The notes: a model not told the origin generated them from the sequence alone. A DNA stretch of 20,667 bases from Candidatus Rifleibacteriota bacterium (GCA_905236675.1 CAJOND010000051.1:1-20667); one strand, 5' to 3'; counted from the stretch's first letter, positions 2,873 through 20,639 are shown. Made by a program: numbers and translations.

Positions 2873-4168
2873 TCAGATAATTGATACAGTTATTTTAGTA
2901 TCAACGTTTTTAACAATATTATCATCATCCTGACCCTTTATAGAGTTAAGAATCATTTCTTTGAACAGATCCATAATATGATTTTTTCGTTTAAAGGCTT
3001 CTACATATAAATTATTATCAGAATTATTGCTAGCTAATTTAATTTCAACTTCCGGATTTTCTTCAGAAACTGTAGAATCTGTTGCTACCACTACATTTGA
3101 AGCATCAGAAGAGTTGGAAGATCCATTGTTTGTAGAACTACTAGAACTTGCTGTAGCAATGCTTTTACTTGAAGAATCACCTATTTCAACACCTGTTGAA
3201 GCCACTCCAGTAGTAGCATTCCCTTTGGTGTCAACCATCTTCAAACCACCTGCTGCTGTAGTTTCTATTTCAGAACTCTTTATAATAGATAGGTTTCTAC
3301 CTGCATATCTATTTGTATTAAGACTTGTTCCAATTCCATAAGAATAATTTGAAGTTCCACCAAGCAATGCAGCTAATTGAGTATTAGCAGCATCTATAGC
3401 TGAATAACCTGCCAAACTAGAAGAATTAGAATAGTTAGTCATAGAAGAAGTCAAGCTCGAAAGTAAGCTGGATGCTAAAGAATTTCCTGAACCTCCCAAA
3501 AGGCTTGAAGAGCTTAATAAGCTTGAATTACTTAATAAATTCGAGTAATCGGTTAGCGAGTTCCCTAATAAATTAGAAGAACCGAGAAGAGTAGAATTTA
3601 AACCGCTGACTGATGATTTTAAAGCGAGAAACATATTATCTAAGTAAGAACTTATATAGCTTTTTAGTTCTTCGGTCTGTGAAGAAATCATATCATCAGT
3701 TTTCTTCATATATGCAGTTAAAAGATTTTCGTTGTGAGATTTGTCCGCTCTTAGTGCGTCTGCAAAAGCCAATGTTGTATCTCTGAATTTTCCGCCCATG
3801 ACATGACCTACTTCAGTAGTAATGCGAGTGCTGATTTTAATAAACATTGTGAAGCAGGAACCGGCAGTAAGTTTTTCTTCTTCTGTAGCTTCGCTATCAT
3901 CTGCTTCGTCCAATTCAGAAACAGCGGAAGAAGCTTCCAATTCTTCGACTTCCTCAGTTTCATCAACACTTTCTTCAATATGTTGATTACCACAGCAGCA
4001 GACATGTTCTGGTCTTTTGCCATTACAGTTTCTAAGAGCCTGTAACATAACAGAATCAAAATCTTCAGTAGTATTTTCAGTAGGATTGTTTGCCGAAACA
4101 GAACTAGAATTTTGAGTAGTAAGGCCTGAAGTTACCATATTGCTATTTAATTCATTTATTGTGGACAT
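2873..4168 (-). CDS. Hypothetical 431-aa protein: N-terminal Ser/Thr/Asn-rich segment, HVCCCGNQH cysteine cluster, poly-acidic (E/D) stretch, central putative folded region, long Ser/Leu/Asn/Gly low-complexity repeats (LLGSSNLLGNS...), no signal peptide
   Basis: The ORF track gives 2873..4258 using a TTG start. An ATG at 4168 with a perfect AAGGAGG SD 6 nt upstream is the likely real start (MSTINELNS...). No family recognised by eye. Confidence 0.6.
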   Translation of the reverse strand: MSTINELNSNMVTSGLTTQNSSSVSANNPTENTTEDFDSVMLQALRNCNGKRPEHVCCCGNQHIEESVDETEEVEELEASSAVSELDEADDSEATEEEKLTAGSCFTMFIKISTRITTEVGHVMGGKFRDTTLAFADALRADKSHNENLLTAYMKKTDDMISSQTEELKSYISSYLDNMFLALKSSVSGLNSTLLGSSNLLGNSLTDYSNLLSNSSLLSSSSLLGGSGNSLASSLLSSLTSSMTNYSNSSSLAGYSAIDAANTQLAALLGGTSNYSYGIGTSLNTNRYAGRNLSIIKSSEIETTAAGGLKMVDTKGNATTGVASTGVEIGDSSSKSIATASSSSSTNNGSSNSSDASNVVVATDSTVSEENPEVEIKLASNNSDNNLYVEAFKRKNHIMDLFKEMILNSIKGQDDDNIVKNVDTKITVSII

Positions 4169-4182
4169 ATCTGCCTCCTTAT

Positions 4183-4317
4183 TTATCTTTCTATATTTAT
4201 CTGAACTAAGCGTTCTGGGAAGAACACTGTAGTGAATAGAGGTTTCGAGACGAACCAAACAATGCCGTCATAGAGATCGTTAGTTTTTATTTTGTTTGCT
4301 TTATTTATATTTTTCAT
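4183..4317 (-). CDS. Candidate 44-codon upstream ORF / leader peptide (MKNINKANKIKTNDLYDGIVWFVSKPLFTTVFFPERLVQINIER)
   Basis: ATG at 4317 with an AAGGAG SD 9 nt upstream. Its TAA stop (4183-4185) sits 3 nt before the AAGGAGG SD of the 431-aa gene. Not in the ORF track (below its length cutoff). It could be a chance ORF in AT-rich DNA. Confidence 0.2.
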   Translation of the reverse strand: MKNINKANKIKTNDLYDGIVWFVSKPLFTTVFFPERLVQINIER

Positions 4318-6846: not shown

Positions 6847-7407
6847 CTATCCCTTCAAAATTTCTATGACTTTCTCATTTTTTTGTGAAATAGCCAAATC
6901 TAAAGGGGTTTGACCATCAACACTTTTAATTGTTGGGTCACAACCTGCTTTTAATAAAACTTTCACTGCTTCTGGATGATTCTGCTGTGCAGCCAGGTGA
7001 AGTGGGGTCCAACCGTCATTATCACCTAGATTCAATTCTATATCATAATTCAGAAGCTGATTTATTACCGGAACACAACCTCTAAAACCTGCCCAGTGCA
7101 AAGGAGTCCAACCGTCTCTTTCAATCTTTCGAGGGTCTGCCCCATGAGCCAATAAAATAGCAAAAGTTTCCGGCTTTTCTCTAGCAGCAGTAAGATGTAA
7201 AGGAGATACCCCATCCATATTTAAAGCGTCAACTTCAGCCCCTTTTTCTAATAGCAAATTTGTTGCTTTAACCATACCAAGCTTAGAAGCAAGATGCAGA
7301 GGAGTAACTCCTGTAGGATCTTTTTCCATAACATTTTCACCCGAGTTTATTAATTCAACAGCAAGATTTTCATCATTTTTATTTAAAGCTTCTAATAGTT
7401 TATTCAT
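6847..7407 (-). CDS. Ankyrin-repeat protein (about 5 ANK repeats)
   Basis: Repeated TPLH(L/W)A...G....V..LL..GA(D/E) units (TPLHLASKLG, SPLHLTAARE, TPLHWAGFRG, TPLHLAAQQN, TPLDLAISQK). AAGGAG SD 7 nt before the ATG. Confidence 0.85.
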   Translation of the reverse strand: MNKLLEALNKNDENLAVELINSGENVMEKDPTGVTPLHLASKLGMVKATNLLLEKGAEVDALNMDGVSPLHLTAAREKPETFAILLAHGADPRKIERDGWTPLHWAGFRGCVPVINQLLNYDIELNLGDNDGWTPLHLAAQQNHPEAVKVLLKAGCDPTIKSVDGQTPLDLAISQKNEKVIEILKG

Positions 7408-7488: not shown

Positions 7489-8598
7489 ATGGGTTTTTGG
7501 GCTAATCAAACTAGATCTGTTATAGAATGGAAAGATGCATCTCCAGATGTTTTAATATGGCGTTGGGATGGTACTAATGATGAATTGAAAAATGGTTCAA
7601 AGCTTATAGTTAATCCCGGTCAAGCTGCAATTTTCTTGTATGAAGGCGAAATAAAAGCTATTCATGATTATCCAGGAAAATTTGAACTAGGCACTGGCAA
7701 CGTTCCTTTCCTTACTACCTTAAAGAATATTATGCAGAATTTCACTTCTGAACATAAAGCTAATATTTATTTCGTAAGAACAACCGAATTCGTTGACCAG
7801 AAATGGGGCACTACTGGACCAATCAAATACGACGATCCAAAATACAGATTCCCAGTAGGAATGATTGCACACGGCAATTTCTCTTTCCATATTACCGATA
7901 TAAGAAACTTCTTTGTAAATTTCTCAAGCAATACCGATGTAGTTACCATTGCAAGCATTAGAAAGAACATTATCGGTCGTATTCTTGCTCCAATGACTTC
8001 AGTTTTCGCAAAGAGCGGCTACAGTTATTCAGAAATAGACAGTCATATCCAGGAACTTTCTGACACTCTTTCTCAGGCAGTTGCTCCAGACTTTGCAAAA
8101 CTTGGTTTCGAAATGTCTGATTTCAGAATCGAACGCACTGACTTCGATGAAAAGACTCATGAAAGAATAGATAAGATTGCTGATAAAATGGCTGAAGCTC
8201 AAGGCGATGCGGCAAAAGTTAATGAATTTGCGAACATCAACAATGCTGGTATAGCTAATTATGCAACAATGGAACAATTAAGAGCTCTTAATTCTGCCGC
8301 AGCTAATCCAAATGGTATGGCTGGAATGGGTGTAGGCATGGGCTTTGGTGCTGGTCTTGGTGCTGGTATGGGCTTTGGTGGCATGAATATGATGAATAAT
8401 CAAATGCAGCAGCCACAAGCAGCTCCTCAAGTTCCACAGGTACCAACCGTAGCTTGCAAAGCTTGTGGTGCTCAAATCAAAGCTACTGCAAAATTCTGTC
8501 CAGAATGTGGCAAACCTCAAAATCAGGTTCAGAAATGCCCAGAATGTGGCGCTGAAGTAGAAGGCAAATTCTGCCCAGAATGTGGTCACAAAATGTAA
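7489..8598 (+). CDS. SPFH/band-7 domain protein with a Gly/Met-rich linker and C-terminal triple zinc ribbon (COG4260-like)
   Basis: N-terminal SPFH-like region; low-complexity GMAGMGVGMGFGAGLGAGMGFGG linker; C-terminus has CKACG...CPECG...CPECG...CPECGHKM zinc-ribbon motifs. Confidence 0.65.
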   Translation: MGFWANQTRSVIEWKDASPDVLIWRWDGTNDELKNGSKLIVNPGQAAIFLYEGEIKAIHDYPGKFELGTGNVPFLTTLKNIMQNFTSEHKANIYFVRTTEFVDQKWGTTGPIKYDDPKYRFPVGMIAHGNFSFHITDIRNFFVNFSSNTDVVTIASIRKNIIGRILAPMTSVFAKSGYSYSEIDSHIQELSDTLSQAVAPDFAKLGFEMSDFRIERTDFDEKTHERIDKIADKMAEAQGDAAKVNEFANINNAGIANYATMEQLRALNSAAANPNGMAGMGVGMGFGAGLGAGMGFGGMNMMNNQMQQPQAAPQVPQVPTVACKACGAQIKATAKFCPECGKPQNQVQKCPECGAEVEGKFCPECGHKM

Positions 8599-9766: not shown

Positions 9767-9800
9767 ACCGCTGGTTTTTCAAAGCTGGCGGTATTTTTTT
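9767..9800 (+). terminator. Rho-independent terminator after the lipoprotein gene
   Basis: accgctgg...ctggcggt (8 bp including two G-U wobbles) followed by T7. Confidence 0.55.
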
Positions 9801-9862: not shown

Positions 9863-9891
9863 TTGACTTTATTTAAAGGCAAATCTATAAT
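9863..9891 (+). promoter_or_regulatory. Consensus sigma70 promoter TTGACT-17-TATAAT for the PTS operon
   Basis: Seen directly: -35 at 9863-9868 and -10 at 9886-9891 with a 17-nt spacer, about 30 nt upstream of the first operon gene. Confidence 0.6.
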
Positions 9892-9918
9892 TGAAACAAT
9901 TATTGCAATCGAAAACGG

Positions 9919-10377
9919 GTGTACATGATTCAAATAGAAGACGTATTACAACAGAATGGAACAGTTTCATTATCTAAGGCTGCTTTGCTATGCAGTATGA
10001 TAGACAACGAACTTGATGACGAGTTAGTTGAACATCTGAAAAAGCACAATATCTATGCTGTAATAACCAGAGCCGGAGGTTGTGGAGATAACCTGAAAGG
10101 TAAAATTCTCCGCAATACTTTTGGAGCTGCTGAAAATAGCGGTTTGTTAACCATCAACATGAAAAACCGACATGTTATTACTTCATTGGTAGAAGGTGTT
10201 CTTTCTTCCTTTGACAGTTCTCTTATGAGCGTTTCTGGCGGAGGTTTAAAAATAGGTTTGGCAGTCCGTGATAATGATATTGCTATGGGAATCTATGGAA
10301 GTATAGGACTTCCTGGTCTAGATGTTGACCATGAGATTTCAGCTTGTCGTATTCTCTATCATTGTCTGGAGGACTAA
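9919..10377 (+). CDS. Hypothetical 152-aa protein, first gene of the PTS operon (Gly-rich motifs AGGCGDNLKGK and VSGGGLKIG)
   Basis: ORF track (GTG at 9919; alternative ATG at 9925). Its stop is 3 nt before EIIA. No family recognised. Confidence 0.5.
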   Translation: MYMIQIEDVLQQNGTVSLSKAALLCSMIDNELDDELVEHLKKHNIYAVITRAGGCGDNLKGKILRNTFGAAENSGLLTINMKNRHVITSLVEGVLSSFDSSLMSVSGGGLKIGLAVRDNDIAMGIYGSIGLPGLDVDHEISACRILYHCLED

Positions 10378-10380
10378 AAC

Positions 10381-10797
10381 GTGATAGGAATAGTAGTTGT
10401 TTCTCACGGTCTTCTTTCGGAACATTTAGTATCAGCTGCTTCTCTTATATTAGGAGAAACTAAAAATATCAAAGCTGTTACTTTTATGGCGAGAGAATCC
10501 TTAGAAGATTTACGCAAAAAAACAACTGATGCTGCTAATGAGTTTACAGACGATGGTTGTATTATTTTCACCGATATAATGGGTGGAAGTGCCACTAATG
10601 TCAGTATAGAAATCATGAAGAGTCGTAATGATGTCTATGTAGTTACAGGTGTTAATCTTCCAATGCTTATTGAAGCTATTAATAGCCGTGAAAATACTAG
10701 TTTGAAAGATTTGGCAAACCAAGTTTCAAACTCAGGCGTAAGAAGTATTATTAATTTAAAAGAATATTTTGAAAAAAGAGCAGCAAAACGAGTATGA
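10381..10797 (+). CDS. PTS mannose/fructose/sorbose-family EIIA component
   Basis: MIGIVVVSHGLLSEHL... aligns with the EIIA-Man N-terminus (conserved His in VSHG) and the VTGVNLPML region. GTG start with a GGAGG SD 8 nt upstream. Confidence 0.8.
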   Translation: MIGIVVVSHGLLSEHLVSAASLILGETKNIKAVTFMARESLEDLRKKTTDAANEFTDDGCIIFTDIMGGSATNVSIEIMKSRNDVYVVTGVNLPMLIEAINSRENTSLKDLANQVSNSGVRSIINLKEYFEKRAAKRV

Positions 10798-11255
10798 CAA
10801 ATATTGCATTTTTAAGAATAGATGATAGACTAGTTCATGGTCAGGTTATAGTCGGTTGGCTACCCGAAATAAAGCCTGAAAACCTTGTTGTTGTAAACGA
10901 TAGCGTAGCTGAAGATTCAATGCGCCAAGATCTTATGTCTTTAAGCGTTCCGCCTGATGTAGATCTGGAATTCTTTTCCACTTCTGACATTTCAGACGAA
11001 GATGTTGGCGAAAGTTCTTTTGTTTTAGTTTCTTCCCCTAAGGATGCTTGGGAATGTCTACAGAAAGATATTAAACCATTACGTTTTAATGTCGGTGGTA
11101 TGCATTCTAAAGACGGCAAGGAAGAAATATTTGAGGCATTACACGTTGATGATGAAGATCGAAAATATTTTGATTTAATCATCAAATCTGGTGTTGAACC
11201 TATTTTTCAACCAACTCCACAAAATCAACCCATGCCATTGGGTGGTATTCTGTAA
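10794..11255 (+). CDS. PTS mannose-family EIIB component
   Basis: LRIDDRLVHGQV signature of EIIB-Man (phospho-His). ATGA overlap with EIIA. Confidence 0.85.
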   Translation: MTNIAFLRIDDRLVHGQVIVGWLPEIKPENLVVVNDSVAEDSMRQDLMSLSVPPDVDLEFFSTSDISDEDVGESSFVLVSSPKDAWECLQKDIKPLRFNVGGMHSKDGKEEIFEALHVDDEDRKYFDLIIKSGVEPIFQPTPQNQPMPLGGIL

Positions 11256-11269
11256 AGCGAGGACAAAAC

Positions 11270-12388
11270 ATGGCTTCAATTACTTTCAGCAAAGTAGTGA
11301 AACAGTATGAAGGGGCAAAAGAACCTACTGTTAAGGGGATTGACCTTTTCATCAAAGACAAAGAGTTTGTCGTTCTTGTTGGTGGTTCAGGATGTGGTAA
11401 AAGTACAAGCTTACGTATGATTGCCGGTCTTGAAGACATAACTGGCGGCGAAATCAAAATTGGTGATACAGTTGTAAACAATTTGCCACCAAAAGATCGT
11501 GATATTGCTATGGTTTTTCAGAACTATGCTCTCTATCCGCATATGACTGTTAGAGAAAACCTTTCTTTTGGTTTAAAACTTCGCAAACTTCCACAAGACG
11601 AAATCGACAAACGTGTTGATGAAGCTGCAAAAATGCTTGAAATTTCTGATTATCTTGAAAGACTACCAAAACAGCTTTCAGGTGGTCAGCGTCAGCGTGT
11701 TGCATTAGGTAGAACTATAGTTCGTGAACCAAAGGTCTTCCTTATGGACGAACCATTATCTAACCTTGATGCTAAATTGCGTGTTCAAATGCGTGCCGTT
11801 ATTAAAAAGCTTCATCAGCGATTAAAAACAACCTTTGTCTATGTTACACATGATCAGGTTGAAGCAATGACAATGGCTGACCGTATTGTTATTCTCCATC
11901 AGGGAATTATCCAGCAATACGATATTCCTTCTGTTATCTATGAAAAGCCAGCTAACGTATTTGTTGCACAATTTATCGGTTCACCGCCAATGAATGTTAT
12001 GAAAGTCAAGAAAACCGATAAAGGATTGACTTTATTACCTGGCACTGGTTCTGACAAAAATATCGACTGGGAAATCAAACTTTCAGATTATTTCAAAGAT
12101 GATTTCGAAGATGATATGTCTATAGGAATAAGACCTGAACATTTATTGATTGATAAACAAGCCGAAGGTGTTCCTTGTCTAAAAGTTCCTTGTAAAGTAG
12201 ATTTGATTGAACCTATGGGAGCAGAAACCTATCTATACTTAGATTGTAACGGTTTGAGCCTCAACGCTAAGGTTCCACCTACAATTAAGCCCGAAGTTGG
12301 CGATAGCGTTGTTGCAAATATCCCAATAGAAAAGTTCCATCTCTTTAAGCAGTCAGATACAACAAGAATTGGACGCAAAGGCGAATAA
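11270..12388 (+). CDS. Sugar ABC transporter ATP-binding protein, MalK/UgpC/MsmX type (with C-terminal TOBE-like domain)
   Basis: Walker A GGSGCGKST, signature LSGGQRQRVALGR, Walker B FLMDEPLSNLDAKLR, H-loop YVTHDQ; about 130-aa C-terminal extension typical of MalK. Confidence 0.85.
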   Translation: MASITFSKVVKQYEGAKEPTVKGIDLFIKDKEFVVLVGGSGCGKSTSLRMIAGLEDITGGEIKIGDTVVNNLPPKDRDIAMVFQNYALYPHMTVRENLSFGLKLRKLPQDEIDKRVDEAAKMLEISDYLERLPKQLSGGQRQRVALGRTIVREPKVFLMDEPLSNLDAKLRVQMRAVIKKLHQRLKTTFVYVTHDQVEAMTMADRIVILHQGIIQQYDIPSVIYEKPANVFVAQFIGSPPMNVMKVKKTDKGLTLLPGTGSDKNIDWEIKLSDYFKDDFEDDMSIGIRPEHLLIDKQAEGVPCLKVPCKVDLIEPMGAETYLYLDCNGLSLNAKVPPTIKPEVGDSVVANIPIEKFHLFKQSDTTRIGRKGE

Positions 12389-12405
12389 TTCATGAACTAA
12401 ATTAG

Positions 12406-12441
12406 ACTCTCCTCGTAATACTTTATTGCGAGGAGAGTTTT
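12406..12441 (+). terminator. Intra-operon terminator-like hairpin (10-bp stem, 13-nt loop, TTTT)
   Basis: actctcctcg...cgaggagagt followed by TTTT, between the ABC ATPase and the SBP gene. Confidence 0.45.
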
Positions 12442-12475
12442 ACTAATTACCTTAAATCTTCGTGGTAAATCGATA

Positions 12476-13756
12476 ATGAATAAAGCTTTAAAAACTTTTC
12501 CAAAGATTTTATTTATTTTAGGCTCTTTTGTCCTAGTATTAATTCTAGGCTGTTGTGACTCTACTTCAAATTCCACAGACAATAATTCTTCTGGTGCAAA
12601 AATAGTTCTAGAATTTTGGAACACAATGGAAGGTAGAGAAGCCGCAGTAATGCCAGATGTTTTTAAGGCTTTCAACGAAAAATATCCTAACATCACTATT
12701 AAAGAAACTACTATCGATTTTTATGAATGCAAGGATAACTTTATTAAAGCTTCATCAGAAGGCAAAGCACCAGATTTAATAAGAACCGATAGATTCTGGC
12801 TAGCCTCTTTCGTTAGCAAAGGTCTTCTTAATGAAATAAAAGAAAATGAAATTACAGAAGAACTTGCCGATATGGTTCCAGTCGCAAGAGATTTTGTTAC
12901 ATTAGATAAAAAAATATGGGCAATTCCATTGTCTGTAGACAGTTTGGCAATGTTTTACAACAAAGCCCATTTCAGAGAAAAATCACTTCACACTCCCAAA
13001 GATTTTGATGAATTTTCAAAAGCCTGTGAAAAACTGACTGATCCAGCCAACAACAGATACGGATTTTTTATCTACCCTAACGGCTGGTATTTTGAACCTT
13101 TTTTCTTTGGCTTTGGTGGTCAATATTTCGATGAAAATGGAAAGCTTTATATCAAATCAGATGCTGGGAAAAAAGCATTAGAATTTCTTATGCACTTAAA
13201 ATCAGAAATTAAAGCTGTTCCTCCAATACCATATACAAATAAACTTTATGGCACTATGATCAAAAGTTTTTCAAGCGGTCAAACAAGCATAATATTTACA
13301 GGCCCCTGGGCAATTCGAGATATTATTGCAGGAAGTGCTTTTAAAGATAATAATTCTAATCTTGGTGTAGAACAAATTCCAGCTGGTCCAAGAGGAACAT
13401 TTTCTCCCATTGGCTGCCAGTCAATTGCTATTTCAAGTAAGACAAAACATAGAGATGCCGCTTTAAAGTTTGCTAAATTTATGTTTGATTACGAAATACA
13501 AAAGAATTTTACAATGGCAAATTATGGGCTCCCTGCAAGAAGAAAAGTATTTGCCGCTCCAGAATTAAAACAGGATCCATATCTGCAAACATTTATTAGA
13601 CAGCTTCAAATGAGTTGTAAAGCTTATACTCATCCTGATCAGGGTGATATTTATGCTCCGTTGGGCGACAAAATAATAAAAGTTCTTAACGGTGATTTAA
13701 CTATCGAGTATGCTCTGTCAGATGTTGAATCAGAATGGGGAGCGACACACCATTGA
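12476..13756 (+). CDS. Extracellular solute-binding lipoprotein, family 1 (CUT1 sugar ABC type)
   Basis: Signal peptide with lipobox ILGC|CDS; N-terminal region ...KIVLEFWNTMEG...PDV...APDLIRTD..W...GLL resembles MalE/MsmE-type SBPs. Confidence 0.7.
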   Translation: MNKALKTFPKILFILGSFVLVLILGCCDSTSNSTDNNSSGAKIVLEFWNTMEGREAAVMPDVFKAFNEKYPNITIKETTIDFYECKDNFIKASSEGKAPDLIRTDRFWLASFVSKGLLNEIKENEITEELADMVPVARDFVTLDKKIWAIPLSVDSLAMFYNKAHFREKSLHTPKDFDEFSKACEKLTDPANNRYGFFIYPNGWYFEPFFFGFGGQYFDENGKLYIKSDAGKKALEFLMHLKSEIKAVPPIPYTNKLYGTMIKSFSSGQTSIIFTGPWAIRDIIAGSAFKDNNSNLGVEQIPAGPRGTFSPIGCQSIAISSKTKHRDAALKFAKFMFDYEIQKNFTMANYGLPARRKVFAAPELKQDPYLQTFIRQLQMSCKAYTHPDQGDIYAPLGDKIIKVLNGDLTIEYALSDVESEWGATHH

Positions 13757-13770
13757 TTTGGTAACTTTTA

Positions 13771-14604
13771 ATGGAACACCTAAACCTATCTCTTATTGTT
13801 GCATTATTAGGCGGTATAGTTGATTTAGATTCAACCGCCGCAGTACAATGCATGATTTCACAGCCAATAGTCGCTGCTCCTTTAACAGGTCTAATTGTTG
13901 GCTCAATGCTAGATGATTCATCATCAGGTCTGACCCTTGGTTTGATGATTGGTTTAATCCTCCAGCTTACTTGGATAGAACAACTTCCTCTAGGAATGAA
14001 CGTTCCTCCTGACGCAGCTTTAGCTTCTGTTTTATCTGTTGCATTAGGTTTTTGTGCAGGTCATGAATTTGATTATGCAAAGAGAGAAGCTTGCTACACT
14101 ATTGGATTATTGGTTTCTGTTGCCTTGGGATTGATTGGTAGAAGTCTGGATATGTTTGTCCGACGATTAAACACCAGTATTGATTCTTGGGTTAATTTGC
14201 AAATAGAAGACAATAAATTTAACTCAATCATATTTGGTCATATAAGTGGTGGTTTTATAACCTTTATTAAGGCATTTATTTTTTGTTTTCTTGTTATATG
14301 GTTTGGAGTTGAACCTCTTAAAACTTTTACTAGTCTTATGAGTGTTTTTCATTGTGGCGGTTTTGTTGTCTTACAAGGTCTTTTACCTGCCGTAGGATTT
14401 TCAGTTCTTGCCAGCATGTATTTAAAAACAAAAAAAGAAACTATATATTTTGCAGCTGCTATTATCGGATTTACTCTAATTAATGCTTTTATTAATATAG
14501 AATCTTATTTTTATATAACTATAGCTTTATTAATTTCCCTTATAACTATGTGTATAACGGGCTATACGTCTACAAAAACCAGATCGAAGAGAGGTAAGAA
14601 ATGA
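13771..14604 (+). CDS. PTS mannose-family EIIC component
   Basis: Aligns by eye with ManY: ...QPIVAAPLTGLIVGS...PPDAALASV... Polytopic. Confidence 0.8.
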   Translation: MEHLNLSLIVALLGGIVDLDSTAAVQCMISQPIVAAPLTGLIVGSMLDDSSSGLTLGLMIGLILQLTWIEQLPLGMNVPPDAALASVLSVALGFCAGHEFDYAKREACYTIGLLVSVALGLIGRSLDMFVRRLNTSIDSWVNLQIEDNKFNSIIFGHISGGFITFIKAFIFCFLVIWFGVEPLKTFTSLMSVFHCGGFVVLQGLLPAVGFSVLASMYLKTKKETIYFAAAIIGFTLINAFINIESYFYITIALLISLITMCITGYTSTKTRSKRGKK

Positions 14605-15428
14605 CCTTATCGAAATGGTTGTTATTTAAAGTAGCTTTAAGAAGCTTCCTGCTTCAAGCATCATGGAATTACCGAGGCATGATGAGCATGGGGTTTCTTT
14701 ATTCTATAGCCCCTGGACTAGACCACATTTATGAAGATAAAAATGAAAGAGAATTGGCCTATATGCGTCATTTCGAGTATTTTAATACTAATCCCTATTT
14801 TTCTTCTATTGTAATGGGGGTAACCTTGTCGTTAGAAGAAAAATATAAAAATGGAGATAATAAAGTAGATCCTGAAATAATTCATAATACCAAAGAAGCT
14901 CTTATGACCTCTCTTGCAGCAATTGGTGACGGTTTTTTCTGGGATAGCTGGAGACCATTTGTAGCTGTTTTTGCAATAGTTTTTGCCGCAGCAAATTATA
15001 GCTTTGTTCCTTTTCTCTTCTTAATCTTATATAACTTACCTCATCTGTATTTCAGATTTGCAGGAATATATTGGGGATATGAAGATGGAATGAATGTTAT
15101 CCGCAAATTAAAAGGGTTCAAAATTCCTCAAATTCGACAAACGTTAAGAATGGGAACCCTAGTTTTATTAGCCTATCTTATTCCTAATAATGTCAGTGTT
15201 AAAACACCTTTTTACATAAAAGTTATGGAATATATACAAGATTTGTCAGCAAAAAAAATATCGTTGGAATATGGTATTTTTTTTAATAAAATAGTTCAAG
15301 GGGTAATTGCATTATTACTAGTTTCTTTAGGCACATTTGCTTATAGAAAAAAAGTAAATGTTTTATTAATCTCTTTTCTTCTTCTAATTTTAGCCCTAAT
15401 GTTTTATCATTGGGGTATATTTATTTAA
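14601..15428 (+). CDS. PTS mannose-family EIID component
   Basis: LLQASWNYRGMMSMGF...RHFEYFNTNPYFSSIVMGVTLSLEE aligns with ManZ (LFQGSWNFERMQALGF...RHLEFFNTQP...GVTLALEE). ATGA overlap with EIIC. Confidence 0.85.
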   Translation: MTLSKWLLFKVALRSFLLQASWNYRGMMSMGFLYSIAPGLDHIYEDKNERELAYMRHFEYFNTNPYFSSIVMGVTLSLEEKYKNGDNKVDPEIIHNTKEALMTSLAAIGDGFFWDSWRPFVAVFAIVFAAANYSFVPFLFLILYNLPHLYFRFAGIYWGYEDGMNVIRKLKGFKIPQIRQTLRMGTLVLLAYLIPNNVSVKTPFYIKVMEYIQDLSAKKISLEYGIFFNKIVQGVIALLLVSLGTFAYRKKVNVLLISFLLLILALMFYHWGIFI

Positions 15429-15438
15429 GGACCTGAGA

Positions 15439-15711
15439 ATGAAACGAAAAGAAGTCGAAATTAAAAACAAACTTGGGTTACACGCTAGACCAGCATCACT
15501 GCTTGTGAAACTGGCTAGTAAATATTCTTCTGAAATCGATTTGATAAAAGAAGATACTGAAGTTAATGCCAAAAGTATTCTTGGTGTTATGATGCTTGCG
15601 GCTGGACCTGGTCAAAGACTTACTATCACTGCAGAAGGAGCCGATGAAGTAGAAGCTGTAGAAGCTTTGGCTGCTCTTATCGATAGTGGATTCGGTGAGG
15701 AATTAGTATAA
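15439..15711 (+). CDS. ptsH: Phosphocarrier protein HPr
   Basis: GLHARPA with His15 and a conserved KSILGV Ser46 region; 90 aa. Confidence 0.9.
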   Translation: MKRKEVEIKNKLGLHARPASLLVKLASKYSSEIDLIKEDTEVNAKSILGVMMLAAGPGQRLTITAEGADEVEAVEALAALIDSGFGEELV

Positions 15712-17412
15712 ATGAGTATAAAATTGCAAAATCAATGCTTTGAAACAGGCATTATTGGTTCTTCAGGAACCTCTGTCGCTCGTTGCTATGTTTTCCAAAA
15801 ACGCATAGAAGTAGAGCGACGTTCCATTACAGAAGAACAAATAGCTGATGAAATAAAAAGACTTGATTTTGCAATTAAAAAGACTGCTGACGACATACAA
15901 AACTTCCGCAAAAGAGCAGAAGAACGTCACGGTGAAAAATATGCCGCAATATTTGATTCCCACTTATTAATGCTAGAAGACCCTCAATTTAAGCCCAAAT
16001 TAATCGCACGAATGGAAAAAGATAAAATAAATATTGAAAGTGCGGTTAGGGAACGAATAGATGAAATTCATAAAAGTTTTTCAGCTATCGCAGACCCTTA
16101 TTTACGAGAAAGGGCCATAGACATAAAAGATGTTGGCGATAGACTATTACGACATTTATTAGGTTTGGAAGAACCTGGAGACGATATAGACAATAAACCC
16201 TATATACTTATTGCTCAAGAAGTAACCCCAAGCGAATTGTTAAATTTTACTCGAGGTGAACTTAGAGGAATATGCTTAGATACTGGTGGAGCTACTTCTC
16301 ATGTTGCAATTCTTTCTGACGCATTAGGTATTCCTTCTATATTCGGATTAAATGATTTCTCCGAAAAGGTTTCTACAGGCGATATTTTACTTATGGATAC
16401 CAGAACAACTCCCAAAATAATAGTCAATCCCAAATCAGATGTAATAATTGCCTTTGAAGATAGCTTAGAAAAAAACAATTTTTCATCAAAAAAATCAGAA
16501 ACTACTGCAGATGGAATAGAATTACATATAGGAGCTAATGTAGCCCGAGTCGAAGAAATACCCGTATTGCAAAAACTTTGTGTTAAAAATATCAGCCTTT
16601 TCAGAAGTGAATTTGTTTTTATGGAAAGTCTTGACTCTCCGTCAGAAAAATACCAGACCGAAGTCTATACCCAGTTAGTAAAAGGAGTTACAGGAACAGT
16701 TGTTTTAAGAACCTTAGATGTAGGTTCAGATAAACCATTAAAATACCTGCCTTTAAACGATGAAAATAATCCTGCCATGGGCTTTAGGTCGGTCAGATTT
16801 TCTATTTCCAGACCAGATGTTTTAGAACCCCAATTAAGAGCAATGATTAATGCAGCACAGCACGGAAATGTTAAAATAATATTCCCAATGGTTTCTGTTC
16901 CATCTGAATTAAAAAAGATTTCCGAATTATTTAATAAAGTTGTCGATGAATTAAAGCCCCAAAAGGTTCCTGAATGGGGAATAATGCTTGAAGTTCCATC
17001 GGCTGTTTTTATGCTTGAAGAAATATCAAAATATACAAAATACATTAGTCTTGGAACAAATGATCTGGTTCAGTTTTTCTTTGCAATAGACAGAACCAAT
17101 GAAAAATTGTCGGGCTATGCAGATTATTTATCTATGCCATTCTTAAAATTTTTAGAACAATGTGTAAATGAAGCAAATAGGCTTGGAATAGAAATTGGAG
17201 TCTGTGGCGAAATGGCTTCTGATCAAGCTGGTTTCGTTGCACTTTTAGGTCTGGGGATACAAAGTTTTGGTATGAGACCAGCAGTAATTGAAAAAATGAG
17301 AGAACTAATTCCAAATTTAAATAAAAAGAACATAAAAGGTTTTATCAAAAATATTATGAAACGTAACGAACAGATTAATGTCAGACAATTAATCGAATTA
17401 ACATATTTATAA
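15712..17412 (+). CDS. ptsI: PTS Enzyme I (phosphoenolpyruvate-protein phosphotransferase)
   Basis: 566 aa; GGATSHVAIL phospho-His motif; C-terminal PEP-utilizing domain with GVCGEMA; lies immediately after ptsH. Confidence 0.9.
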   Translation: MSIKLQNQCFETGIIGSSGTSVARCYVFQKRIEVERRSITEEQIADEIKRLDFAIKKTADDIQNFRKRAEERHGEKYAAIFDSHLLMLEDPQFKPKLIARMEKDKINIESAVRERIDEIHKSFSAIADPYLRERAIDIKDVGDRLLRHLLGLEEPGDDIDNKPYILIAQEVTPSELLNFTRGELRGICLDTGGATSHVAILSDALGIPSIFGLNDFSEKVSTGDILLMDTRTTPKIIVNPKSDVIIAFEDSLEKNNFSSKKSETTADGIELHIGANVARVEEIPVLQKLCVKNISLFRSEFVFMESLDSPSEKYQTEVYTQLVKGVTGTVVLRTLDVGSDKPLKYLPLNDENNPAMGFRSVRFSISRPDVLEPQLRAMINAAQHGNVKIIFPMVSVPSELKKISELFNKVVDELKPQKVPEWGIMLEVPSAVFMLEEISKYTKYISLGTNDLVQFFFAIDRTNEKLSGYADYLSMPFLKFLEQCVNEANRLGIEIGVCGEMASDQAGFVALLGLGIQSFGMRPAVIEKMRELIPNLNKKNIKGFIKNIMKRNEQINVRQLIELTYL

Positions 17413-20164: not shown

Positions 20165-20185
20165 GCCAAGCTTTGCTTGATTGAA

Positions 20186-20215
20186 AAAACGCCTGATTAT
20201 ATCAGGCGTTTTTTC
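20186..20215 (+). terminator. Rho-independent terminator after the P-type ATPase
   Basis: aaacgcctgat-tat-atcaggcgttt followed by TTTTT. Confidence 0.8.
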
Positions 20216-20262
20216 GTAGTTGGTAGTCGGTTTTTGTCGTCCGCAAGTGGCGCTACTTCATA

Positions 20263-20287
20263 CCAAGGGCATCGCTGATGCCCTTGG
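20263..20287. repeat. Very stable GC-rich hairpin (11-bp perfect stem ccaagggcatc/gatgcccttgg, 3-nt loop)
   Basis: Seen directly; not followed by a T-run on either strand. Confidence 0.5.
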
Positions 20288-20370
20288 GGCTTATAGTATC
20301 GTCCTGTCGGACGAGTTCTTTTATAGAGTTCTAGCCCTAGGGTGTCTTCGACACCTAGGTTATTAATGTA

Positions 20371-20539
20371 ATGTCCTGCAGGAGCTTGTCCGAAAACCAG
20401 GTTTTTAGCCTAAAATTAGCTTATTCTAATTATTTTAAAATCCCCCTTAATCCCCCTTTACGAAAGGGGGTAAGGACAATTACCAGTGCACTAAAATTTT
20501 AGTGATTTTCTAGTTTTCGGACAACCTCCTGCCGGACAT
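20371..20539. repeat. TIR-bounded about 169-bp non-coding element (27-bp terminal inverted repeats, 25/27 matching) with internal palindromes; MITE-like or structured RNA
   Basis: Left arm atgtcctgcaggagcttgtccgaaaac (20371-20397) matches the reverse complement of gttttcggacaacctcctgccggacat (20513-20539). Internal hairpins are cccccttt-acg-aaaggggg and cactaaaa|ttttagtg. Confidence 0.45.
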
Positions 20540-20639
20540 ATTCTACGCTATCGCTAAATAAGGTCGACTTGTTGTGATAAACTAAAATTGTAACATTGTT
20601 GTCCGACAGATAAAATTATCGTAAGGAGTTAATTTATTA

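Follow-up and report, generated by a model that had tools for sequence, protein, structure and literature searches.

Structure of the operon

The subject of this analysis is an operon located in a 20,667-nucleotide (nt) stretch of DNA from a Candidatus Rifleibacteriota bacterium (GCA_905236675.1, CAJOND010000051.1:1-20667; the whole stretch is called the window below), in which the genes of a mannose-family phosphotransferase system (PTS) enclose two components of a sugar importer of the ATP-binding cassette (ABC) type, namely an ATPase and a solute-binding protein (SBP). All of its parts belong to known families, and what is new is the deeply conserved architecture that joins them without ABC membrane subunits. 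Gene identities at 9919-17412 were assigned by calling open reading frames (ORFs) and by Pfam and NCBIfam matches, and the nine co-directional genes on the plus strand constitute one operon, the upstream limit of which is set by a terminator (9767-9792) and a promoter (9863-9891). Its features are:

9767-9792, plus strand: intrinsic terminator of the preceding lipoprotein gene (stem of 11 bp, then a T-run)
9863-9891, plus strand: near-consensus sigma-70 promoter TTGACT-17-TATAAT (11/12 matches), followed by a leader of ~30 nt
9919-10377, plus strand: HutP-family protein, first gene (PF09021, E 6e-20, profile positions 2-122 of 128)
10381-10797, plus strand: EIIA, mannose family (PF03610, E 1e-25)
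10794-11255, plus strand: EIIB, mannose/sorbose family (PTSIIB_sorb PF03830, E 5e-36)
11270-12388, plus strand: MsmX/MalK/UgpC-type ABC ATPase with a C-terminal OB/TOBE regulatory domain (PF00005, ABC_tran; PF17912, OB_MalK; PF08402, TOBE_2)
12404-12440, plus strand: intercistronic hairpin between the ATPase and SBP genes (stem of 17 bp, then UUUUA; -27.6 kcal/mol, z = -5.2)
12476-13756, plus strand: MalE/GacH-like family-1 solute-binding lipoprotein, the SBP (PF13416/PF01547, SBP_bac_1/8)
13771-14604, plus strand: EIIC, mannose family (EII-Sor PF03609, E 5e-30)
14601-15428, plus strand: EIID, mannose family (EIID-AGA PF03613, E 2e-62)
15439-15711, plus strand: HPr (PF00381, E 2e-32)
15712-17412, plus strand: enzyme I, EI (three PEP-utiliser domains; TIGR01417, 457 bits, above cut-off)

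The spacings between the nine genes, in order, are 3, -4, 14, 87, 14, -4, 10 and 0 nt. An earlier interpretation made from the sequence alone (the sequence-only reading) had given the order as unknown-EIIA-EIIB-ATPase-SBP-EIIC-EIID-HPr-EI, with gaps of 3-15 nt or overlaps. ORF calls and Pfam recover exactly this order, and all of the family assignments hold, the “unknown” first gene being HutP-like, while the description of the gaps is correct for most junctions and fails at the 87-nt ATPase/SBP spacer. The PTS is complete around the ABC genes, as had been claimed, with IIA, IIB, IIC, IID, HPr and EI all present. Three features were absent from that reading: the HutP-like first gene, the hairpin in the 87-nt spacer, and an alpha-glucan theme connected with a glycoside hydrolase of family GH57.

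Conservation across Riflebacteria

About 80 homologues of the SBP exceed 40% identity and, where named, they belong to Candidatus Riflebacteria, Rifleibacteriota or Ozemobacteraceae. The contexts of six of them, ranging from 69% down to 44% identity, contain the same nine genes in the same order between unrelated flanks. A scan with an SBP profile over one genome per GTDB species yielded 42 loci, almost all labelled Riflebacteria, onto which the nine window proteins were mapped by tblastn: every one of the 42 is collinear up to the contig ends, and 35 carry all nine genes. Identical gene order was also found in further metagenome contigs. Over the 42 loci, identity descends to 39% for the SBP and spans 69-96% for the ATPase, and down to that 39% the SBP clade was recovered solely in this operon context. 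The loci closest to the window are metagenome-assembled genomes (MAGs) from rumen and gut (L009-L011, L030).

The nine genes are never split up, although the genes on either side of them are readily exchanged, and the only change seen within the operon across loci is the loss of a GH57 gene, described below. The arrangement is conserved far beyond chance, and the operon has been inherited vertically since the Riflebacteria ancestor. The sequence-only reading had proposed to look for the exact order in relatives; since it is kept phylum-wide, with changing flanks and with SBP identity as low as 39%, a recent local rearrangement is ruled out. Nor was the ATPase/SBP pair ever seen beside permeases in these relatives, an arrangement that would have spoken against that reading's interpretation.

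A few of the loci deserve separate mention. Four of them (L012, L013, L016 and L025) carry the typical operon under record titles naming Candidatus Avigastranaerophilus, Candidatus Methylomirabilis and Erysipelotrichia, for which an error in the binning or labelling of MAG contigs is a more probable cause than horizontal transfer. On L134 (10001-10993) the operon ends inside the SBP gene, the frame running on into an EamA-like hydrophobic tail with unrelated genes after it; only one scaffold shows this, its junction is abrupt, and it may be a chimeric assembly, a misassembly or a decayed copy, so that we gave it no weight. In many genomes of the Ozemobacteraceae type, the operon has a conserved 3′ neighbour, a HEAT/armadillo-repeat protein of 1430-1506 amino acids (aa) with an N-terminal zinc ribbon (L001, 15103-19515; also L003, L006, L007 and L135, downstream of EI). 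In the window, this place is taken by a P-type ATPase.

Search for ABC permeases

A sugar importer of the CUT1 class (TC 3.A.1.1) comprises a family-1 SBP and a MalK-type ATPase with an OB/TOBE domain, both of which are encoded in the operon, and two MalF/MalG-type permeases with an EAA loop, which were found neither in the window nor within 10 kb of the operon in ~50 Riflebacteria loci. In the window, Pfam applied to all large ORFs, hydropathy and an EAA-motif scan gave no BPD_transp_1-type or EAA-loop permease, so that the earlier statement that its 20 kb contain no MalF/MalG-type permease is upheld. The same motif scan over all ORFs of the first 50 fetched loci and the window was likewise negative, and no permease emerged within 10 kb of the operon in the ~50 loci when the motif scan was combined with a screen for ORFs with multiple transmembrane segments and with Pfam. 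That screen returned five clusters of ORFs in the flanks, and none of those checked by Pfam was a permease. Permeases located just beyond the window are thus ruled out for 10 kb on either side in ~50 loci.

As a control, we considered the nearest classifiable ATPase homologues outside Riflebacteria (51-59% identity), of which 13 have an EAA-loop permease within 4 kb and 22 do not. Detection of permeases beside 13 of the 35 control loci indicates that the motif scan works, and the prevalence of loci without a permease indicates that a stand-alone location is normal for this ATPase subfamily. Such a location is a hallmark of multitask CUT1 energisers. A scan of JGI metagenomes with the ATPase retrieved mostly generic MsmX-like ATPases (51-59% identity) and one true orthologue, L054, which has the same context as in the window.

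PTS components

The mannose family of PTS (TC 4.A.6) is recognised by its IID subunit (PF03613), which is unique to it. The operon encodes both IID and IIC, together with IIA-Man and IIB-sorbose proteins with phosphorylatable histidines: His9 of IIA is invariant in 45 orthologues and His15 of IIB in 47. Likewise invariant, among 39-50 orthologues, are His15 and Ser46 of HPr and His197 of EI. Residues 9-238 of EIIC align to a solved mannose permease IIC, and EIID aligns over its full length to ManZ of 6K1H (143 bits).

The sequence-only reading had allowed that EIIC and EIID might be misannotated ABC permeases, recognisable by an EAA loop. Both are genuine ManY/ManZ homologues by Pfam and PDB matches, and a motif scan of the two proteins found no EAA loop. 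We also looked in the Riflebacteria IIC/IID for an insertion that could serve as a docking element for the SBP. In comparison with relatives that have no SBP, EIIC differs only by an 8-aa loop and an extra C-terminal helix, and EIID by a short loop, and none of these is EAA-like; against the same relatives and the solved ManYZ, no coupling-helix-like insertion or distinctive periplasmic domain could be found.

The system resembles E. coli ManXYZ with PtsH and PtsI in having IIA-Man, IIB-sorbose, IIC and IID proteins and conserved phospho-histidines. It differs in having IIA and IIB as individual polypeptides and HPr and EI encoded within the operon, in the location of the ATPase and SBP genes between those for IIB and IIC, and in the HutP-like gene at its head.

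ABC components

The ATPase falls into the NCBIfam UgpC/MalK subfamily (475 bits, above cut-off), and its best matches among solved proteins are 7X0Q, AlgS, Bacillus subtilis MsmX (356 bits) and mycobacterial SugC. Among 39-50 orthologues, Walker A, Walker B, the Q-loop, LSGGQ, the H-loop and Arg49 are all invariant. Arg49 corresponds to Arg47 of E. coli MalK, an arginine that contacts the EAA-loop glutamate in the MalFGK2 structure. The ATPase is also the most constrained large protein of the operon, with 53% invariant positions as opposed to 14% in the SBP; the corresponding values are 50% for HPr, 34-35% for IIC and IID, and 29% for EI. Being MalK-like and encoded apart from permeases, it is probably of the multitask type represented by B. 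subtilis MsmX, Streptococcus pneumoniae MsmK and Streptomyces MsiK, with which it shares the MsmX match and the lack of an adjoining permease. B. subtilis MsmX serves CycB/GanS-GanPQ and other partners. ATPases of this type are not known to occur inside PTS operons, and their SBPs are encoded with the permeases, whereas here the SBP travels with the ATPase.

The SBP has a lipobox, LILGC, the Cys26 of which is invariant in 46 orthologues. Its nearest solved relatives are the acarbose/maltose-binding protein GacH and the maltodextrin-binding proteins of archaea and Thermotoga, and it retains a DRF motif aligning with Asp65/Arg66 of E. coli MalE, which are sugar-contacting residues. JGI names it as an arabinogalactan-oligomer/maltooligosaccharide type, the type of the CycB/GanO family. 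In nearly all loci, its gene lies 1-18 nt upstream of that for IIC, or of that for GH57. A distant MalE-like SBP (33% identity) is found on L008 (5456-11290), its gene divergent from that of a giant protein of 1445 aa that combines alpha-amylase and lamin-tail domains; no permease was seen near it, and it is one precedent for a MalE-like SBP encoded apart from permeases. Judged by the conserved residues, all parts of the operon look functional.

Origin of the operon

Among homologues of IID there is a sharp drop from Riflebacteria (at least 49% identity) to the next group (at most 38%). The closest relatives outside the phylum, at 33-38% identity, come from Geoalkalibacter (Desulfuromonadales), related metagenome contigs and Elusimicrobia. 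In these outgroups, the operon runs IIA-IIB-IIC-IID-HPr-EI, as in Riflebacteria, and directly follows rpoN-hpf-ptsN-hprK-rapZ, whereas the ATPase, the SBP and the HutP-like gene are all missing from it. The description of the window's operon as a mosaic is therefore justified: the PTS operons nearest to it in other phyla share its order, but have neither of the two ABC genes.

The Elusimicrobia locus has a GH57 enzyme between IIB and IIC, and in this it resembles basal Riflebacteria, in eight loci of which a GH57 gene follows that for the SBP and precedes that for IIC. The Riflebacteria GH57 matches the 4-alpha-glucanotransferase of Thermococcus litoralis (1K1W, 279 bits), aligns over its full length with the Elusimicrobia enzyme, and starts directly at the catalytic domain, indicating that it has no signal peptide and is cytoplasmic. 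A neighbour-joining tree built from IIB, IID, HPr and EI (1069 columns, no bootstrap) places the operons with GH57 at the base, as a paraphyletic set. The most economical scenario would be that the ancestral operon was IIA-IIB-GH57-IIC-IID-HPr-EI, that the ATPase and SBP genes were inserted before GH57 on the Riflebacteria stem, where the HutP-like gene was also added at the head, and that several later losses removed GH57, one of them in the lineage of the window. With a maltose/maltodextrin-type SBP and GH57 both accommodated between IIB and IIC, the cluster has an alpha-glucan theme. Endomicrobiaceae use a mannose-type PTS and a CUT1 ABC system for glucose, and their mannose-type PTS has been read as a system for glucose uptake and phosphorylation that can replace glucokinase (PMC11257099).

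Promoter, HutP-like protein and intercistronic hairpin

The promoter upstream of the HutP-like gene, TTTTCTTGAC-N17-CTATAAT, and the start context of that gene, GGTGTACATG, are both kept nearly base for base in AT-rich and GC-rich Riflebacteria alike (9863-9925 in the window; the same position in L001-L050), despite their very different G+C content. Such conservation points to strong, probably constitutive, expression of the operon, and the true start of the HutP-like gene is likely to be the conserved ATG at 9925.

The HutP-like protein is 49-99% identical across the phylum, and its clade was recovered in Riflebacteria only. HutP of B. subtilis has a His triad that binds Mg2+ and L-histidine, and no invariant histidine exists among 44 orthologues of the Riflebacteria protein, which therefore probably does not use the histidine/Mg2+ site of its B. 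subtilis counterpart; its ligand, if any, is likely to be a different one. The gap 3′ of its gene, only 3 nt, is too short for a terminator, and the one RNA element that may be its target is the hairpin located three genes further on. A leader or antiterminator of the HutP type found little support: the leader is only ~30 nt long, and no consistent NAG repeats accompany the ATPase/SBP hairpin in spacer sequences inspected across clades.

The hairpin itself keeps its position, with differing sequence, in most clades (L001, L003, L004, L006, L009-L032, L049). In many lineages its arms are AAGGAGGG and CCCUCCUU, which are Shine-Dalgarno-like and anti-Shine-Dalgarno-like, respectively. The basal clades with GH57 do not have it, and in them the ATPase and SBP genes directly adjoin each other. 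In one basal operon (L007, 8811-8850), UGACCGACAAAC occurs three times in the IIB/ATPase spacer as perfect direct repeats, with a period of 14 nt, and the region does not fold stably (z = +1.0); the repeats resemble a protein-binding array and could be a target of the HutP-like protein.

Possible modes of action

We tentatively favour the view, possible if still short of probable, that the operon is a co-transcribed maltodextrin/glucose module, in which the ATPase, and probably the SBP, serve permeases encoded elsewhere while the PTS takes up and phosphorylates glucose. The characterised members of the MalK-type ATPase family are all known to work on EAA-loop permeases; as the ATPase is intact and constrained, and IIC and IID have no EAA loop, we infer that its partner permeases lie elsewhere in the genome. 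The ATPase would be a stand-alone, probably multitask, energiser, driving maltodextrin import together with the SBP via such distant EAA-loop permeases. GH57, where present, would free glucose in the cytoplasm, doing the same job as MalQ, and the PTS would take up or recapture glucose and phosphorylate it to glucose-6-phosphate. Phosphate would pass from phosphoenolpyruvate to EI (His197), HPr (His15), IIA (His9) and IIB (His15), and finally to the sugar entering via IIC/IID. Co-transcription from the near-consensus promoter would fix the dosage and stoichiometry of both systems and may permit cross-regulation between the PTS and the MalK-like ATPase, and the hairpin 3′ of the ATPase gene could set the upstream soluble proteins and the downstream genes at different levels. 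The distal permeases, the substrates and the cross-talk between the two systems are what we infer in this scheme.

The proposed module resembles E. coli MalEFGK2 with MalQ, since MalE-like, MalK-like and, in basal lineages, MalQ-like functions are assembled in one cluster, but it has no MalF or MalG, its PTS is of the mannose rather than the glucose type, and its glucanotransferase-like enzyme belongs to GH57 and not to GH77. The sequence-only reading had listed a shared MsmK-like energiser among its options, and this is the option that fits the ATPase best, by subfamily, motifs and stand-alone relatives; the mechanism attached to it is a proposal. Several points weigh against the module with distant permeases. 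The spacing of 1-18 nt downstream of the SBP gene points to coupled translation of the SBP and the PTS membrane subunits. An SBP gene usually neighbours the genes for its own permeases, and separation throughout a phylum is unusual. Our literature search provided no precedent for a PTS operon that encloses an ATPase and an SBP, and a search covering the 10 kb around the operon revealed no EAA-loop permease in any Riflebacteria locus.

It is unlikely, in our opinion, that the operon encodes a binding-protein-dependent PTS, in which the periplasmic MalE-like lipoprotein would capture glucose, maltose or a short maltodextrin at high affinity and hand it to the IIC/IID elevator for phosphorylation by phosphorylated IIB; the ATPase would then be either unrelated or help to open the loaded SBP. 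In the fullest form of this idea, a true ABC/PTS hybrid, the SBP would be the extracytoplasmic receptor of IIC/IID and the ATPase might dock on the PTS complex and release substrate from the closed SBP, which we likewise consider improbable. The immediate proximity of the SBP gene to IIC, or to GH57-IIC, in nearly all loci agrees with such a scheme, as do the lack of a nearby permease in any locus examined, the restriction of the SBP clade to this context, and the position of IIC and IID, which hold the place of MalF and MalG in malE-malF-malG operons. The family of tripartite (TRAP) transporters (DctPQM) offers a functional analogy only, with a periplasmic SBP feeding an elevator-type membrane unit, but the TRAP SBP is of the DctP type and not of ABC family 1, and no phosphotransfer takes place in TRAP.

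Evolutionary-rate covariation among the nine operon proteins, a weak test in which the IIC-IID pair served as a positive control (0.71), did not reveal any coupling of the SBP to IIC (0.05) or IID (-0.04), nor to the ATPase. Other arguments against direct delivery of substrate by the SBP to the PTS are that an intact and highly constrained MalK-type ATPase would be left without a role, its docking on a PTS complex being unprecedented; that the Riflebacteria IIC/IID have no distinctive periplasmic domain; and that GH57 acts on unphosphorylated cytoplasmic maltodextrins, which a PTS would not deliver. A mannose-family PTS that uses a binding protein is not known, and the literature search yielded no account of this operon, of a Riflebacteria PTS or of an SBP-coupled mannose PTS. 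The SBP-dependent PTS raised by the sequence-only reading is backed by strict synteny and not by the weak test of rate covariation, and is a conjecture as to mechanism.

Somewhat less likely still is a frozen accident, whereby a single insertion placed the ATPase and SBP genes in a highly expressed operon, where they would persist just because it is rarely rearranged, with no functional link to the PTS other than the common promoter. The operon is indeed unusually static, with GH57 loss as the sole change seen, and stand-alone MsmX-type ATPases can occupy arbitrary neighbourhoods; yet three alpha-glucan-related genes (SBP, ATPase and GH57) came to occupy one slot of a glucose-type PTS, and the nine genes never part while their flanks turn over freely.

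Least probable of all, in our estimate, is regulatory coupling, in which the SBP and ATPase would sense substrate or flux and tune PTS phosphorylation, or read-through of the hairpin, via the TOBE domain or the HutP-like protein; the sequence-only reading had likewise raised a sensor role for the SBP. PTS/MalK cross-talk is established in enterobacteria, where E. coli MalK, when idle, keeps MalT sequestered and also binds EIIA-Glc, and inducer exclusion by EIIA-Glc provides a general precedent for regulatory contact between a PTS and MalK. The ATPase retains its OB/TOBE regulatory domain, a protein of the RNA-binding HutP family heads the operon, the hairpin between ATPase and SBP is conserved in position, and the ATPase covaries in rate with EI (0.59) and IIA (0.34) in the same weak test; but inspection found no conserved NAG-repeat HutP site beside the hairpin, the hairpin is missing in basal clades, and a pure sensor would not need full conservation of ATPase catalysis.

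Other features of the window

The rest of the window encodes a CLC channel, an M48 peptidase, an ankyrin-repeat protein, an SPFH/zinc-ribbon protein and the P-type ATPase, along with several further proteins without a family match; Rfam and tRNA scans of the window returned no matches. The ankyrin-repeat protein (6847-7407, minus strand; 186 aa) consists almost entirely of ankyrin repeats (Ank_2, E 1e-46) and adjoins an SPFH/Band-7 protein with a double zinc ribbon (7489-8598). Ankyrin-repeat proteins are uncommon in free-living bacteria. A 461-aa ORF on the minus strand (2873-4258), without a family match, has an acidic stretch and long low-complexity runs rich in Ser, Leu and Asn; it may encode a protein that is secreted or surface-exposed, or it may be a spurious ORF. 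Downstream of the P-type ATPase gene, at 20165-20560, a terminator-like hairpin, GCCTGATTATATCAGGC, is followed by a T-run and then by further near-perfect palindromes, such as CCAAGGGCATCGCTGATGCCCTTGG, CCTAGGGTGTCTTCGACACCTAGG and CCCCCTTTACGAAAGGGGG, making up a dense run of hairpins.

Implications

The PTS and binding-protein-dependent ABC import are treated as separate routes of sugar entry, and here parts of both are found in one transcription unit throughout a phylum. If the SBP does feed the PTS, the operon would represent a new class of transporter; if the two ABC components work instead with distant permeases, it would be a natural example of hard-wired co-expression, and possibly cross-regulation, of PTS and ABC systems. 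Through GH57, it also ties a little-studied lineage of mannose-type PTS, present in Riflebacteria, Elusimicrobia and Desulfuromonadales, to alpha-glucan metabolism, and for Riflebacteria it constitutes a phylum-level genomic marker.

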